Source: Pseudomonadota bacterium
GTDB lineage: Bacteria; Pseudomonadota; Gammaproteobacteria; Burkholderiales; Burkholderiaceae_C
Length of the DNA stretch: 64,000 nucleotides
Direction: 5' to 3'
NCBI GenBank assembly: GCA_041168905.1
Contig: JBEEJZ010000027.1
Span: 8,005-72,004, forward strand
Shown here in pieces: positions 55,946 to 60,832 of the stretch. Position numbers and translations under genes: made by a program. Under the pieces are notes generated by a model. That model was not told the origin of the DNA and did not search any database. It was given only the letters and a program-made list of their open reading frames with translations. The number at the start of each line of letters is the position of its first letter. Within the stretch, counting starts at the first letter, position 1.

Positions 55946-55959
55946 TGACAGTCGGGGCG

Positions 55960-56460
55960 TCAGACCCCCGACGCCCCCAGAAAACAGCACAGGCTGGCCA
56001 CGATCGTCAGGCGAAACCGCAGCGTGAGCCAACCGTTCATGTGGAACAGCCGGTACTGCTTGCGGTCGACCAGGTAGCAGGCCATCAGCAAGAAGCCCAG
56101 CACGACCAGCCCGGCCCACGGGGGCATGATCACGGCCACCGCCGCCACCAGACTGGGGACCACGCCCCAGACAAAAGGGAAGAGTGGCGAGGTCTGACCG
56201 TCGCGCATGGCCAGCCCCCAGTAAATGCCCCCTAAAAAGCTGGCGATGACAGCGGCATAGGCCGCCAGACCGAGCATGGCAAAAGGCGTGAGGTCGTGGC
56301 TGACCAACCAGACCGTCAAAGCCCCGATCACAAAAGGTGCCAGACCGGCATAACCCAGGCGCAAGGCCCACAGGGGTGGCTCCGAACGGGTGTGCATCGA
56401 CGGCGGATCATGGCGGGTTTGGGACGTAGCGGCGGGGGTGGGAGCAGAGGCAGATTTCAA
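55960..56460 (-). CDS. DUF3429 family membrane protein
   Basis: 166 aa with about 4-5 TM segments. Contains PPLWALRLGYAGLAPFV...FLGGIYWGLAM. Last gene of the photolyase-like operon. Confidence 0.7.
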   Translation of the reverse strand: MKSASAPTPAATSQTRHDPPSMHTRSEPPLWALRLGYAGLAPFVIGALTVWLVSHDLTPFAMLGLAAYAAVIASFLGGIYWGLAMRDGQTSPLFPFVWGVVPSLVAAVAVIMPPWAGLVVLGFLLMACYLVDRKQYRLFHMNGWLTLRFRLTIVASLCCFLGASGV

Positions 56461-57785
56461 AACAGGGTCTCCTGGCAGGGCAAGGCGCAGAGGGTATCAA
56501 AAGAGCCCGCACGCTTGCGCACGGCCGAGTAGTAGCGGCTGAACGAGCTGCAGAACATGTCTGGTTCGGCAAACAAAGGTGCGTCTACCAGCGGCAGGCA
56601 CCCCGCAGGCGGTAAAGCCATGGTCTGAGCAATATCGCTGTAACCTGGCTGCAACACCGGCGCCAGGTGCACGGACCTGGCGGCACGCAGATCCAGCTGT
56701 TGAACGTCTCCCGCCCAAAGCAGGTCGCAAGTCTGCGCCATGGCCTGCAGCACAAAGGACCAGCGGCGGTTCGACCAAGGCCAGGCTGTGTGGGCCGGGC
56801 CGTGAATGAAGCCCAGGTGTAGGGGGCGTTGGGGGCCCGGAATTTCCCGAGTGGCCTGGTCATCTGGCGGCGTCAACCCCATTCCGATGGACCAGGGATG
56901 AACCAGCACCACGTCACGACCCGCGATCTGCGCCAGCACAGGCAGGTGTTCTGCACCGCAAGCACTCAGCACATCCGCCGGCGGCTGCGCCAGCAGGATG
57001 GGTTCCTGCACACCCGGATGCGACCCCGGCTGAGGACCGACATCGCCTTGATGGCGGGCGATTTCTTCGAGGGCCTGGTAACTTTGATCGATCACCGTGC
57101 CGGGGCTGTGCCAGGCTGAGCTTGCCGCCGGCGCATAGCGGGCCACGTTCTCGGCATTGAAAAGATAAGGCTTGATGGAAAACGTACCAGCCACCCACTG
57201 CCAGCTCAGGTGGTTGGACGCGAGATCGCCATCGAGCAAATGGCCGTAAAGCCAGTCAGCCCCGGCCCGCCAATGAACCTTGCGCATATGCACCACATAG
57301 CTGGCCAGCCACATGCGTGCGTGGTTGTGCAGGTAGCCCGTGGCATACAAGGTGCGCACGGCCGCATCGATGGCTGCTACCCCGGTACGTCCTTCGCGGA
57401 TGTCGGCGGGCACAACCTCGGCGTAATGCCCAAGCCAGACAGGTGGGCTGCGCAAGTCGCTGAAGATGGCGCGCCCACCGTCAGCGGCATGTCGCCAGAC
57501 ATGGTGATAAAAGGATCGCCATGCCCATTCGGCGACCAGCTTGTCATCGAAGCTCAGCGCGTGGTGGTGTGCGACTTGCGTGGCCGCTTCCCGCAAGCTG
57601 AGCAGGCCGTGGGTGAAATAGGGCGACAAGCCCGACGCCGCCCCATCGAGTGCGTTGCGGGTGCGCGCGTACTGACCTGGGTGCACGCTGGCCAAGCGAG
57701 CCCGGGCCGCCGCCCGCGTGGGCACAAAGTCCCTCAAGTGCAAGGGCACAGCCAAGGAGTCGAGCAGCGCTGTGACGGTTGTCAT
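56457..57785 (-). CDS. Photolyase FAD-binding-domain protein lacking the N-terminal antenna domain, with a C-terminal domain of about 200 aa and unknown function
   Basis: 442 aa. aa ~35-230 read YARTRNALDGAASGLSPYFTHGLLS...TGYLHNHARMWLASYVV...LLDGDLASNHLSWQWVAG (FAD_binding_7-like). The remainder is not recognisable. Confidence 0.75.
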   Translation of the reverse strand: MTTVTALLDSLAVPLHLRDFVPTRAAARARLASVHPGQYARTRNALDGAASGLSPYFTHGLLSLREAATQVAHHHALSFDDKLVAEWAWRSFYHHVWRHAADGGRAIFSDLRSPPVWLGHYAEVVPADIREGRTGVAAIDAAVRTLYATGYLHNHARMWLASYVVHMRKVHWRAGADWLYGHLLDGDLASNHLSWQWVAGTFSIKPYLFNAENVARYAPAASSAWHSPGTVIDQSYQALEEIARHQGDVGPQPGSHPGVQEPILLAQPPADVLSACGAEHLPVLAQIAGRDVVLVHPWSIGMGLTPPDDQATREIPGPQRPLHLGFIHGPAHTAWPWSNRRWSFVLQAMAQTCDLLWAGDVQQLDLRAARSVHLAPVLQPGYSDIAQTMALPPAGCLPLVDAPLFAEPDMFCSSFSRYYSAVRKRAGSFDTLCALPCQETLF

Positions 57786-58009
57786 CTGGGTCCTGTGGAT
57801 TTTTTGAGTTCGTGAGAGACGGTGCGTGGGTCACCCAGACGGCGGCAGGCTTCACTGCAGTATTTGACCGACTCCCAGTTTTTGGCCCAGCTTTTGCGCC
57901 ACACCATGTCACGACCGCAGGCCACGCAGGGTTTCACCGGCAGGTACTGCTTATTGCCCCTGAAGCCGGCAGATGCCCCATGGGTTGCGTTGCCTGTTTT
58001 GCGGCTCAT
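57782..58009 (-). CDS. DUF2256 zinc-ribbon protein
   Basis: 75 aa. Contains KPCVACGRDMVWRKSWAKNWESVKYCSEACRR (CxxC...CxxxC). 4-bp overlaps with both neighbours. Confidence 0.75.
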   Translation of the reverse strand: MSRKTGNATHGASAGFRGNKQYLPVKPCVACGRDMVWRKSWAKNWESVKYCSEACRRLGDPRTVSHELKKSTGPR

Positions 58010-59580
58010 GCGTCCGCCCCAAAACCAAACAAATCAGCCTGCCCGGGGTGCTGGGGCTCTGGCTTGGCACCCCGGGCCTTGGCGCGTGTGCCACTGGGCG
58101 GCAAGCCGGATTTGCGCGACCCATGGCGCTGCTGGATAGCGTCGGCCTCCTCGCGGGCCTGCGGTGTTTTGCGCAGCGGGTAAAGCTGATCCTTGGCCCA
58201 CTTCACGGCGGTTCGATCGTCCACAATGGGCAGCGGGTAGTCGGGGTGGCGGCCATCGTTCAGCAGCCAGGGCTGCGCCAGCAGCGGCAGCGGCACATGG
58301 CACAACTCGGGCACCCAACGGCGTATGAACCGGCCCTCGGGGTCATGCTCCTGAGCCTGCCGCGTGGGCGAGTAAATGCGCAAGGTGTTGATGCCGGTGG
58401 TGCCGCTTTGCATCTGCATCTGCGACCAATGGATGCCGGCTTCGAAATCGAGAAACTGGCGCGCCAGAAACAAGCCGGTGGGCCGCCAATGCAGCCACAG
58501 GTGGTACGACGCAAAACTCACGAGCATCGCACGCATGCGAAAGTTGAGCCAGCCGGTGGCGATCAGCGATCGCATGCAGGCATCCACCATGGGGTAACCC
58601 GTTTGGCCGGTGCACCAGGCGTCGAAGCGGCGCTGGGACTCGGCCGTCCAGGGCGCTGGCTCATCGCCGGGGCGAAGGCCGTCGTAGGCATGGGCGAAGT
58701 TCTGGTACTCGATGCGGGGCTCGTCTTCGAGCTTTTGCATGAAATGGCAGTGCCAGCGCAAGCGGCCAGCAAAGCCGCGCAGGCCATAGGCACGTTGGCG
58801 GTCTGCCGGATCGGCACTGGCAGCCGCCAGGGCAATGGCACGCTCGGTGGCCTGGTGCACGGCGCGCATGGACACCGTGCCAAACGCCAGGTGCGGGCTC
58901 AGGCGGCTGCAGCCCTCCTCAGCGGTCAGCGGGCTGGAAAGGGCACGACGGTAGTCTCGCCCCCGAAAGTTCAAGAAATCATGCAGGGTATTTAGGGCTG
59001 CGCTCTCGCCCCCGGACTGCACAGTGCAGCTAGGCACGGCCATGCCCAGGTCCTGTAGCGTGGGCAGCTCCCGCTGCTGCACCGGCACCTCGGGCACAGC
59101 CAAAAACGAGGTGGATGCCGGCAGCACCGGCATATCCATGCGCGCCTGCCAGGTGCGCGCCCAGGCATTGCGCGAGCGCAGGCGCCGCACCACACCGGTC
59201 TGGGGGAACTCTTGCCAGGGCACGCCGTGGGCCATACACCAGGCCCCCACGGCGCGGTCACGTTCATAACTCCAGCCCGGGCCAGTTTCTTCATGGCTCA
59301 GGATCTGGGTCAGTCCCAGGCGCTGATGCAAGCGTGCCAGCAAAGGCAGCACCGATCCCACACGCACCACCAGCGGCAGGCCGCGCTCGGCCAGATTACG
59401 GCGCAACTCACGCAGGCAATCCAGTACAAAGGCCAGGTGGCGGGCATCACACTCGGGGCTGGCCAGCCACTCGGTCTCGATGACATACAGGCCCAGCGCA
59501 TGCCCAGAGCGGGCGGCGGCATCCAGCGGCGCGTGGTCGCTCACCCTCAAATCCCGCTTGAACCAGACCAGTGATGTCAT
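58006..59580 (-). CDS. Cryptochrome/photolyase family protein (full length)
   Basis: Start at MTSLVWFKRDLRVSDHAPL (the classic photolyase N-terminus), giving 524 aa. FAD domain TGYPMVDACMRSLIATGWLNFRMRAMLVSF. Basic C-terminal tail. No CxxC Fe-S motif seen. Confidence 0.85.
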   Translation of the reverse strand: MTSLVWFKRDLRVSDHAPLDAAARSGHALGLYVIETEWLASPECDARHLAFVLDCLRELRRNLAERGLPLVVRVGSVLPLLARLHQRLGLTQILSHEETGPGWSYERDRAVGAWCMAHGVPWQEFPQTGVVRRLRSRNAWARTWQARMDMPVLPASTSFLAVPEVPVQQRELPTLQDLGMAVPSCTVQSGGESAALNTLHDFLNFRGRDYRRALSSPLTAEEGCSRLSPHLAFGTVSMRAVHQATERAIALAAASADPADRQRAYGLRGFAGRLRWHCHFMQKLEDEPRIEYQNFAHAYDGLRPGDEPAPWTAESQRRFDAWCTGQTGYPMVDACMRSLIATGWLNFRMRAMLVSFASYHLWLHWRPTGLFLARQFLDFEAGIHWSQMQMQSGTTGINTLRIYSPTRQAQEHDPEGRFIRRWVPELCHVPLPLLAQPWLLNDGRHPDYPLPIVDDRTAVKWAKDQLYPLRKTPQAREEADAIQQRHGSRKSGLPPSGTRAKARGAKPEPQHPGQADLFGFGADA

Positions 59581-59836
59581 GGCGGCGCAGTGTAGGGGCG
59601 AGGTTATTGCGGCGCTGGTGGCCCTGCTCAAAACCCTTTGGACCAACATCTGCCACGCGCGAGTTCAAGTCCTGCACCAAGCTGTCATAAGATTCCGGCC
59701 TTACCAGCCGCTTTGTCCATGGCGCAACTTTCCCCGGAACTGCGCCCCCACGACCTTTATGCCACCTGCCCGTCCTTCTGCAACGCCCACTGGCAGCGCA
59801 CCCGCCTCACCGGCTTCGAGCCCGCGAGACCGGCGC

Positions 59837-60832
59837 ATGCTAATGGCCGACATTGCGCGGCTGGCGGGCGTGTCCACCTCGACGGTGTCACGCGCACTCA
59901 GTGGCAACCCTCTGATCAAAGCCGAGACCCGCGAGCGCATTGCCGAACTGGCGCGTTCCATGAACTACCAGATCAACGTCGGCGCGGCCAATCTGCGCAA
60001 GCGTGATGTGCAAACCGTGGCAGTCGCAGTCATGGGCGACAGCCTGCAAATGATTTCAGACCCCTTTATCCTCAGTCTGGTGGGCCACATCGCTGACGAA
60101 CTGGATCAGCGCGGCATGAGTCTGCTGTTGAGCCGGGTCACGGTGGAACGTCAGCACATGCTTGCAACGCTGGTGGAAAGCGGACAGGTCGCCGGGCTGT
60201 TGGTGGTGGGGCAAATGACCTGTCATGACTACCTCAATGAGCTGGCCAGCCGGGGCATCCCGATGGTGGTGTGGGGTGCTGGCCTGCCCGACACGCGCTA
60301 CGCCATTGTGGGCGGCGACAACGAGCAAGGCGGCTACCTTGCCACGCGCCACTTGCTGGAGCAGGGTTGCCAGGAAATTGCATTTTTGGGAGATGTGACC
60401 CACCCCGAAGTCATGCTGCGCCACGACGGCTACGCCCGTGCATTGGCTGAGCGGGGTCTGCGGCCCGACCCGTTGATTTACAAGCCGATCCTCTTTCAGG
60501 ACAGTGAGCTACGACAGGCCATTGGCGACTGGGTCGCGCAAGGCATCCGCTTCGATGGCGTTTTTGCGACCAGTGACGTGGCGGCCATGTCGGTGATTGC
60601 AGCAGTGAGCGAGCGTGGCATGCAGGTACCGCGCGATGTCAAGGTGGTGGGTTACGACGATGTGGCGATGTCCGCCCACCTGCATCCGTCCATCACCTCT
60701 GTGCGACAACCCACCGAGCTCGCAGCAAGCACCATGGTGCGCATGTTGTTCGACTTGCTGGCAGAGGAACACCCCGGCGCCGTGGTGCTACCGGCCCAGC
60801 TCATCCAGCGTGACAGCAGCATGCGGCTGTGA
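59837..60832 (+). CDS. LacI family transcriptional regulator
   Basis: Start at MLMADIARLAGVSTSTVSRALSG. The track ORF's upstream 119 codons are antisense to the photolyase gene. Periplasmic-binding-protein-like effector domain. Confidence 0.88.
   Translation: MLMADIARLAGVSTSTVSRALSGNPLIKAETRERIAELARSMNYQINVGAANLRKRDVQTVAVAVMGDSLQMISDPFILSLVGHIADELDQRGMSLLLSRVTVERQHMLATLVESGQVAGLLVVGQMTCHDYLNELASRGIPMVVWGAGLPDTRYAIVGGDNEQGGYLATRHLLEQGCQEIAFLGDVTHPEVMLRHDGYARALAERGLRPDPLIYKPILFQDSELRQAIGDWVAQGIRFDGVFATSDVAAMSVIAAVSERGMQVPRDVKVVGYDDVAMSAHLHPSITSVRQPTELAASTMVRMLFDLLAEEHPGAVVLPAQLIQRDSSMRL

Follow-up and report, generated by a model that had tools for sequence, protein, structure and literature searches.

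Several photolyase-related operons have been described in bacteria. The photolyase-related cluster of proteorhodopsin-bearing Flavobacteriia combines paralogues with small helper genes in a tight, overlapping operon (Kumagai et al., 2018; PMC5932025); a further, likewise compact operon, that of Synechococcus PCC 7335, holds two photolyase genes and is inducible by UV-B (PMC9649867). Those multi-photolyase operons whose regulation has been tested respond to blue light or UV-B with increased expression. The present study concerns an operon of similar build that is known from sequence alone. It is situated on the minus strand, at positions 55960-59580, of a 64,000-nt stretch of DNA (hereafter "the window"; contig JBEEJZ010000027.1 of assembly GCA_041168905.1) from a member of the Burkholderiales, and its four genes, termed A to D, encode a NewCRY-type flavoprotein, a DUF2256 zinc ribbon, a photolyase-family protein of the NewPHL/short photolyase-like (SPL) type and a DUF3429 membrane protein. 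We consider it reasonably probable that these genes form one co-translated operon of accessory parts of light-driven UV-damage repair and not a dedicated four-protein machine.

Both flavoproteins of the operon belong to groups that were delineated in the same survey. NewCRY is defined by the absence of the Glu and Asn that are required to repair cyclobutane pyrimidine dimers (CPDs); its named member is VcCry2 (VC1392) of Vibrio cholerae (PMC7736829). The group is further described as clustering with VcCry2 in sequence-similarity networks, as binding FAD and as having no photolyase activity. In V. cholerae, blue light acts via MerR and ChrR as a strong inducer of the operons that hold cry2 (VC1392), cry1 and phr, and the blue-light transcriptome was found to be unchanged in a cry1 cry2 phr triple knockout (PMC5241685). 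NewPHL was introduced as a photolyase class of inverted topology (Emmerich et al., 2020; PMC7736829) and corresponds to the SPL proteins, which include a betaproteobacterial subgroup, "Be" (Xu et al., 2021; PMC8476157). The two NewPHL enzymes assayed repaired CPDs in single-stranded DNA only and were active alone in vitro (PMC7736829), and CPD repair was also shown for assayed members of the SPL family (PMC8476157). The repair activity that characterizes the class depends on light, with FAD as the sole chromophore. Operons that contain both SPL genes and genes for FeS-BCP, the Fe-S (6-4) photolyases, are already known (Xu et al., 2021; PMC8476157).

Organization of the operon

The four genes are consecutive on the minus strand and are joined by three short overlaps, as follows.

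58006-59580, minus strand: gene A, NewCRY-type (VcCry2-like) photolyase/cryptochrome-family flavoprotein, 524 aa (open reading frame (ORF) listing, Pfam)
57782-58009, minus strand: gene B, DUF2256 CxxC...CxxxC zinc ribbon, 75 aa (ORF listing, Pfam PF10013)
56457-57785, minus strand: gene C, NewPHL/SPL, probably of subgroup Be, with an N-terminal flavin adenine dinucleotide (FAD) catalytic domain as well as a probable C-terminal Z-domain, 442 aa
55960-56460, minus strand: gene D, DUF3429 polytopic membrane protein with a TTG start, 166 aa (Pfam PF11911)
58006-58009, minus strand: A/B overlap, ATGA (direct sequence reading)
57782-57785, minus strand: B/C overlap, ATGA (direct sequence reading)
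56457-56460, minus strand: C/D overlap, TTGA, which requires the TTG start of gene D (direct sequence reading)
56469-56473, minus strand: AGGAG Shine-Dalgarno sequence within gene C, 8 nt before the TTG start of gene D (direct reading)

An earlier note on this DNA had claimed that the consecutive minus-strand genes overlap by exactly 4 bp and form one tight operon. The ORF listing and a reading of the minus strand confirm all three overlaps, and the run of four genes with ATGA, ATGA and TTGA junctions bears out the single operon. Overlaps of 4 nt are the usual mark of tight bacterial operons; they indicate translational coupling and are nothing exceptional. Two of the start codons required a decision. 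For gene A, a longer frame from ATG 59649 gives an ORF of 547 aa, and ATG 59580 is favored because homologues align from residues 1-4 of the protein that starts there. The TTG start of gene D was accepted because AGGAG is situated 8 nt upstream and because the closest relative of the operon (locus L005) keeps the same upstream frame and lacks the alternative in-frame ATG. The position of this AGGAG within gene C supports the TTG start as well as the translational coupling of genes C and D.

A NewCRY-type flavoprotein

To our knowledge, no function has been assigned to the NewCRY/VcCry2 family since 2003, and the family accounts for about 8% of all photolyase-family sequences. Gene A exhibits the two-domain photolyase architecture expected of NewCRY, with DNA_photolyase (PF00875) at residues 26-153 and FAD_binding_7 (PF03441) at residues 294-488 in the numbering of the 547-aa ORF, and every NCBIfam photolyase and DASH model remained far below its cut-off. 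In an alignment with the A. nidulans photolyase 1OWL, E283 is replaced by Arg, N349 by Phe, M353 by Ala, N386 by His, and W390 and W392 by Met. The replaced positions are those of the catalytic Glu, Asn and Met, the N5-proximal Asn, the FAD-proximal Trp of the electron-transfer triad and the lesion-binding Trp, so that gene A lacks the set typical of class I CPD photolyases, namely the Trp triad together with the Glu, Asn, Met and Trp of the catalytic site. The substitutions are shared by the family: among 150 NewCRY-family representatives (38-55% identical), Arg was found in 149, Phe in 148, Ala in 142, His in 150 and Met in 144 at these positions, and the equivalents of the FAD-contacting Arg350 and Asp380 as well as the middle Trp of the triad (Trp367) are kept.

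In gene A, Arg stands in place of the Glu (EcE274), and Phe in place of the Asn (EcN341), whose absence defines NewCRY. Gene A thereby fits NewCRY (VcCry2-type), a membership that follows the published residue definition and not a direct comparison with VcCry2. It is not regarded as a working photolyase, because the CPD-binding Glu, Asn, Met and Trp have become Arg, Phe, Ala and Met; in their place, the protein presents a distinct, strictly conserved pocket of Arg, Phe, Ala, His and Met. The initial description of gene A as a complete photolyase homologue thus holds for the domain architecture but not for the catalytic residues, which are replaced, and the annotation "deoxyribodipyrimidine photo-lyase" carried by its homologues is probably wrong.

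Gene A shares with NewCRY and VcCry2 the two-domain architecture and the loss of the EcE274 and EcN341 equivalents (PMC7736829; PMC5241685), and also the bacterial distribution, mostly beside class I and (6-4) photolyases. It differs from the published descriptions of NewCRY that were searched in three features, namely the C-terminal clamp-type motif described in the next section, a His that is invariant at the FAD-N5 position and, just past the last helix, an HGSR[KR] motif:

58105-58125, minus strand: HGSRKSG motif of gene A (residues 486-492), just past the last helix and before the basic linker

HGSR[KR] is found in most NewCRY homologues, close and distant, and is kept as HGSRKSGLP in the close ones. 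Its role may be to contact phosphate or DNA or, alternatively, to provide a second docking site.

NewCRY was published as confined to bacteria and haloarchaea. Four NewCRY-like representatives (P0363, P0374, P0385 and P0355) are 606-1372 aa long and carry ends with CxxC...CxxC motifs that resemble zinc fingers of the RanBP2/NZF type, which suggests that these long proteins are eukaryotic members of the family. A ubiquitin- or PCNA-related tether in such proteins would parallel the bacterial clamp motif.

A clamp-type motif on the NewCRY tail

The Lys/Arg-rich C-terminal tail that had been noted for gene A is real. The protein ends in ...HGSRKSGLPPSGTRAKARGAKPEPQHPGQADLFGFGADA, its final ~15 residues being ...PQHPGQADLFGFGADA, and this end includes a short peptide of interest:

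58027-58041, minus strand: QADLF pentapeptide near the C-terminus of gene A, candidate motif for binding of the beta sliding clamp

Clamp-binding motifs are known from Pol II, Pol IV (QLVLGL), UmuC, MutS, Hda (QLSLPL) and DnaE (QADMF), and their consensus was reportedly given as QL[SD]LF or QLxLxL by Dalrymple in 2001 and Wijffels in 2004. As in these clamp-binding proteins, the NewCRY peptide is of the Q-x-x-L-F or Q-L-x-L-x-L kind and follows a disordered linker to the extreme C-terminus, and QADLF of gene A is close to QADMF of DnaE. Close homologues of gene A differ from the clamp-binding proteins in position 2, which is mostly Gly.

The peptide is conserved beside a linker that is not, as would be expected of a docking motif. 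Of 120 close homologues of gene A, 118 carry Q-x-[DE]-L-F, mostly QGDLF, in the terminal or near-terminal position, as in the typical tail ...PSPQGDLFA, and the preceding basic linker varies freely. Among 130 full-length, diverse NewCRY representatives, 61 carry the broader pattern Q-x-x-[LMFI]-(F or x-[LFIMW]) within their last 25 residues, in 32 of these as the extreme C-terminus; the same pattern occurs in 4.4% of internal windows, and over 200 shuffles it turned up in 3.8 of 130 shuffled tails on average and in no more than 8. The tails in question include QLSLF, QLDLF, QLNLF, QLSLPL, QLVLGL, QMSLPL and QLSFDF, a repertoire like that of bacterial proteins with beta-clamp-binding motifs. 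The motif also separates NewCRY from the other photolyase-family tails in the fetched loci, as it is present in 16 of 17 NewCRY proteins, 1 of 58 FeS-BCP proteins, 3 of 76 NewPHL proteins and none of the five short photolyase-family proteins described below. No paper tying photolyase-family proteins to clamp-binding motifs was found in the literature search.

These patterns suggest that the tail of gene A docks on the beta clamp (DnaN). With a disordered basic tail that ends in a docking motif of this type, gene A would work on DNA at clamp-loaded sites, for example at gaps or stalled forks.

DUF2256 and the FeS-BCP photolyases

The 75-aa CxxC...CxxxC protein that had been recognized in the sequence is a DUF2256 protein (PF10013, 67.5 bits against a cut-off of 25), and its four Cys are invariant in 83 homologues. 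The invariant residues are K20, L23, P24, C28, C31, W37, R38, W41, W45, C51, S52 and C55. The four Cys are accompanied by an invariant GNKxxLPxKP lead-in and by three Trp spaced at i, i+4 and i+8. DUF2256 and DUF329/YacG are placed in one Pfam clan, TRASH (PMC4047054), and the two families have in common a CxxC...CxxxC zinc ribbon of ~50-70 aa and conserved Trp residues. They differ in that DUF2256 has its own N-terminal GNKxxLPxKP motif and shows no significant sequence or fold match to YacG; a profile search of Protein Data Bank sequences for relatives of DUF2256 likewise gave nothing significant (top match ribosomal L24, E 0.11), and a single homologue exhibited a sub-threshold match to the YacG Pfam model (E 0.028).

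The distribution of DUF2256 was analyzed in an even sample of 401 Pseudomonadota genomes, in which DUF2256 was found in 103, FeS-BCP in 110, NewCRY in 35 (E <= 1e-60) and NewPHL in ~6 (E <= 1e-30). DUF2256 and FeS-BCP are strongly associated, with 90 genomes containing both, 13 only DUF2256, 20 only FeS-BCP and 278 neither (odds ratio 96, Fisher 8e-55); counted per genus, the corresponding numbers are 65, 4, 14 and 151. Among the control genomes, that of Caulobacter vibrioides contains both. DUF2256 is present in all 31 genomes that have FeS-BCP together with NewCRY and in 59 of the 79 with FeS-BCP only, and in none of the four with NewCRY only. In 43 of the 90 genomes with both DUF2256 and FeS-BCP the two genes are within 3 kb of each other; in the remaining 47 they are farther apart or on different contigs.

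The genomic context of DUF2256 points in the same direction. A photolyase-family gene is located immediately downstream on the same strand in 65 of 80 DUF2256 loci, and an NTGA overlap can be read at no fewer than 33 of the junctions that join DUF2256 to the gene after it. In distant genomes in which DUF2256 is not beside a photolyase gene, no common theme was found among its neighbors, which include malate synthase G, NDK and peptidases. The literature search returned no paper that connects DUF2256 with photolyases. Fusions of DUF2256 with photolyases were considered and could not be established, as the long open frames differ in length from the neighboring photolyase frames.

Judged by phyletic pattern and context, an FeS-BCP (6-4) photolyase is most likely the real partner of DUF2256. 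Since DUF2256 tracks FeS-BCP across genomes, and not the two flavoproteins of this operon, the cognate partner of gene B would be the FeS-BCP protein encoded elsewhere in the same genome, on contig C232. DUF2256 may be best compared with a small protein that attaches to an enzyme of DNA metabolism, as helper or gate: YacG is such a protein and targets gyrase as an inhibitor, whereas the partner of DUF2256 would be a photolyase. Gene B itself would be a small YacG-like (TRASH-clan) zinc ribbon whose place in the operon is a relic of an ancestral NewCRY-DUF2256-FeS-BCP-NewPHL cluster.

A short photolyase-family class of 420-440 aa was observed directly downstream of DUF2256 in several loci (L053, L056, L082, L103 and L119; at ~8140-9460 in L053). 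Its members combine DNA_photolyase with a truncated FAD_binding_7 domain (positions 3-150 of 203) and end in ...Y-R-R/L-L-W.

The NewPHL/SPL gene

Gene C is a NewPHL/SPL protein by its sequence features, and subgroup Be is its likely home. The only Pfam domain is FAD_binding_7 at residues 85-204; residues 38-216 align to residues 226-412 of 1TEZ, the catalytic domain of the A. nidulans class I photolyase, and all active-site residues (Ec E274, W277, N341, M345, N378, W382 and W384) are identical to those of 1TEZ. These include the Asn proximal to N5 and the two Trp in the NNGGWQW segment, and the active-site residues are nearly invariant in 58 homologues. An antenna domain is absent, the FAD domain is N-terminal, and the catalytic half is followed by ~170 further residues. 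An AlphaFold model based on the 58 homologues (mean predicted local distance difference test (pLDDT) 91.8, predicted template modeling score 0.92) divides into two lobes, a helical one at the N-terminus and an alpha/beta one at the C-terminus, the latter with beta-alpha elements at residues 291-434. The best Foldseek matches of this model are class I photolyase catalytic domains with ~250 aligned residues, which cover the catalytic half only. In this C-terminal domain, W337, W342 and G325 are nearly invariant; the published Z-domain is described as ordered and ~150 aa long, with a single conserved Trp and a GFF motif.

With the NewPHL/SPL family, gene C shares the antenna-less, N-terminal FAD domain, and the CPD active-site residues, and its C-terminal ~170 aa probably correspond to the ordered Z-domain; a member of subgroup Be would be expected to have no four-cysteine Fe-S signature. 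The genome also agrees with the published pattern of NewPHL occurring with class I or (6-4) photolyases in place of a DASH cryptochrome, as it encodes photolyases of the class I and (6-4) types and lacks a DASH cryptochrome. Differences concern the gene neighborhood, since NewPHL is here located between DUF2256 and DUF3429 and not beside FeS-BCP, and two short motifs. The published "GFF" of the Z-domain reads G-F-I in gene C (G-V-I in the consensus), and gene C and its closest relatives end in QETLF:

56460-56474, minus strand: QETLF at the extreme C-terminus of gene C, similar to a clamp motif (low confidence)

QETLF or QETFF is shared by the closest relatives only and is therefore lineage-specific, and residues 438-442 have pLDDT values below 50 in the model. 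A clamp motif as a general feature of NewPHL was rejected, as the pattern fits only 3 of 76 NewPHL tails and most of these end in QF[AS]DLL. Most betaproteobacterial NewPHL proteins (P0003-P0120, L178-L191) end in ...SFSKFY-x-R-x-RR-x6-QF[AS]DLL, mostly GQF[AS]DLL, and another group ends in ...LLNGELF; the QF[AS]DLL-type peptide bears only a loose likeness to the QAMSLF of the delta-subunit type.

With FAD and light in the blue or UV-A range, gene C would most likely split CPDs in single-stranded DNA. It had been listed as a second FAD-domain paralog beside a complete photolyase; it does belong to the photolyase family, but the enzyme roles are reversed, gene C being the probable repair enzyme and gene A the divergent member.

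The DUF3429 gene

Gene D was correctly described as a small polytopic membrane protein: it is a DUF3429 protein (PF11911, 104.7 bits against a cut-off of 39.1) with approximately five hydrophobic segments in a hydropathy scan, and it is the only DUF3429 copy in the genome. The papers found to mention DUF3429 contain nothing that bears on its function in this context. NewPHL is located upstream of DUF3429 in 14 of 79 loci, and the other 65 contain no photolyase-family gene within ~8 kb; consequently, DUF3429 as a conserved photolyase partner was rejected as a general rule. The recurrent context of DUF3429 is instead UbiH-like FAD monooxygenase - DsbC - DUF3429 - M61 peptidase. In Polaromonas and Limnobacter, NewPHL is situated exactly between DsbC and DUF3429, which makes it appear that genes C and D became adjacent when NewPHL inserted into a housekeeping neighborhood. 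The C-D pair looks to have joined A-B later, in the lineage studied here. Gene D would thus be a membrane protein of mainly housekeeping context, of which NewPHL became the upstream neighbor in some Burkholderiales lineages, and is probably a co-transcribed passenger.

Origin of the gene cluster

The four families had been expected to co-occur as a unit. This was not borne out, as the complete order A-B-C-D was recovered only in the close relative L005 (NewPHL 78% identical) among 48 NewPHL loci, drawn from species-representative genomes, and the 80 DUF2256 and 79 DUF3429 loci, though pairs of the families recur. The other NewPHL genes have DUF3429 downstream (Polaromonas, Limnobacter), have FeS-BCP upstream or are solitary. 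With F denoting FeS-BCP, the orders found in the 80 DUF2256 loci were B-F (30), B-F-C (10), A-B-F-C (6), B-A (4), B-F-C-A (2) and B-F-C-D (2), and in four loci DUF2256 was followed by a gene of the short photolyase-family class. The common theme in Burkholderiales is NewCRY-DUF2256-FeS-BCP-NewPHL, and the operon in the window is that cluster minus FeS-BCP and plus DUF3429. It represents a rearrangement, specific to this lineage, of a type of photolyase cluster that is already known, and is ordinary on its own.

Relative to the Burkholderiales cluster, the copy described here lacks the (6-4) photolyase gene, which is now found beside a CFA-synthase/DUF1365 cluster, and has DUF3429 at its end. 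The assembly (3.37 Mb in 273 contigs, 93% complete) contains three FAD_binding_7 genes and one DPRP/FeS-BCP gene in total. The third FAD_binding_7 gene, on contig C187, scores best with class I CPD photolyase models (381 bits) and reaches 204 with the DASH model, whose cut-off is 317. In locus L242 (C232:134-7717), the FeS-BCP gene is divergent from a cluster coding for an amine-oxidase-like FAD protein, DUF1365, CFA synthase, a chalcone-isomerase-like protein, an MFS_2 transporter and DUF3833, which we take to be the classical photo-oxidative stress gene set. This arrangement suggests that the C232 locus is where the lost FeS-BCP gene of the cluster went.

Flanking features

Two further elements border the operon:

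59581-59836, no strand: divergent intergenic region between gene A and a gene for a LacI-family regulator
55954-55977: perfect 8-bp inverted repeat, GGGGCGTC / GACGCCCC, across the stop codon of gene D and between convergent genes (direct reading)

The gene at 59837-60832, divergent from the operon, encodes a LacI-family regulator (Pfam), and a sugar ABC transporter operon extends from 61067 onward. Most likely, the regulator serves this adjacent sugar operon and not the photolyase genes. The inverted repeat lies 14 bp away from where the convergent SBP_bac_3 gene stops and could act as a terminator in both directions; it has no T-run.

Discussion

Whether the operon serves signaling or repair had been left undecided by the earlier note, which named a light-sensing or signaling module and a multi-lesion repair module side by side. 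Co-expressed light-driven DNA repair is the more likely of the two, as a repair module fits the data better and signaling is disfavored by the V. cholerae knockout and by the clamp-type tails. In a light-signaling module, NewCRY would be a blue-light photoreceptor, DUF2256 its DNA-binding or output partner and DUF3429 an anchor or effector, and the module would regulate genes or physiology and repair nothing. The CPD-repair residues are indeed missing from NewCRY, its C-terminal extension resembles those of plant and animal cryptochromes, NewCRY and DUF2256 genes are adjacent in 12 of the 31 genomes in which they co-occur, and the discoverers of NewCRY proposed that signaling alone seems feasible (PMC7736829). 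However, the blue-light transcriptome of the V. cholerae triple knockout remained unchanged (PMC5241685), DUF2256 follows FeS-BCP and not NewCRY, being present in 0 of 4 genomes with NewCRY and no FeS-BCP, the tail motif of NewCRY is of the type seen in replication and repair proteins, and DUF3429 is seldom linked to photolyase genes. A dedicated signaling module is thus quite improbable, and DNA-directed functions are preferred over a photoreceptor cascade because of the knockout, the clamp-type tail and the co-occurrence of DUF2256 with FeS-BCP. The partner proteins had also been called uncharacterized, which is not wholly true of the flavoproteins, as members of NewPHL/SPL have been assayed (PMC7736829, PMC8476157).

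A repair function could also be exerted by a stoichiometric complex, in which all four proteins, or at least A, B and C, assemble and DUF2256 serves as a shared DNA-binding or bridging subunit of any photolyase-family protein that is encoded beside it. Translational coupling by three 4-nt overlaps would suit such a complex, as would the position of DUF2256 directly upstream of, and often overlapping, an FeS-BCP, NewCRY, NewPHL or short-class photolyase-family gene. But we consider it unlikely that the proteins form one assembly, given that the foursome is not conserved, that in 47 of 90 genomes the DUF2256 and FeS-BCP genes lie over 3 kb from each other or on separate contigs and that NewPHL enzymes act alone in vitro (PMC7736829). 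A different role for DUF2256 alone is suggested by analogy. YacG prevents gyrase from binding DNA, and DUF2256 might likewise be an inhibitor or gatekeeper: bound to a (6-4) photolyase, or to some other DNA enzyme, it would regulate whether the enzyme reaches DNA, for instance in darkness. The shared TRASH clan (PMC4047054), YacG as the top, though not significant, fold match, the sub-threshold YacG match of one homologue and the strong co-occurrence with FeS-BCP speak for this idea; on the other side, the fold and sequence similarities remain below significance, co-translation with the enzyme argues equally for a helper, and the literature search turned up no experiments with a DUF2256 protein. 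We give such a gatekeeper a slim chance.

Several observations weigh against the operon being a set of accessory parts of light-driven repair, as favored here. The operon may be induced by light; no sigma-70-like site was found upstream of gene A (59581-59836), the regions upstream of 130 related clusters, compared by k-mers and by eye, revealed no common motif (those k-mers that were enriched derive from coding sequence upstream), and the genome contains no ChrR-type Cupin_7 anti-sigma factor. About half of the distant NewCRY representatives lack a clamp-type motif, and what points to clamp binding by gene A is a short linear motif. The association of DUF2256 with FeS-BCP was corrected for kinship by collapse at the genus level only, and 13 of the 401 genomes have DUF2256 without FeS-BCP. 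Moreover, the Deinococcus radiodurans control gave a DUF2256 match and neither a FAD_binding_7 nor a DPRP match; therefore, DUF2256 can exist without any photolyase-family protein. The structure model of gene B is moderate (pLDDT 68.8), and its best Foldseek match, YacG (4tma), is below significance (E 0.74). Finally, the NewPHL-DUF3429 pair is kept in Limnobacter, Polaromonas and the lineage studied here and moved as a pair, so gene D is perhaps no mere passenger.

The value of the operon is that it provides two testable leads, the clamp motif of NewCRY and the partnership of DUF2256 with FeS-BCP, and that it corrects a likely annotation error, the photo-lyase label on gene A homologues. The clamp-type motif points to a DNA-bound role for NewCRY over a signaling one. 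DUF2256 occurs almost one-to-one with FeS-BCP across Pseudomonadota and is often translationally coupled to it, and work on FeS-BCP enzymes such as PhrB and CryB may have omitted a natural partner. It is a tentative proposal that both leads hold jointly, that is, that NewCRY proteins are clamp-tethered flavoproteins at replication forks or repair gaps and that DUF2256 is the dedicated small-subunit partner of the Fe-S (6-4) photolyases. NewCRY would then be either a photolyase for an unrecognized lesion or context or a light-gated competitor for access to the clamp. If both parts are true, bacterial photoreactivation would be physically coupled to the replisome and would make use of accessory subunits.

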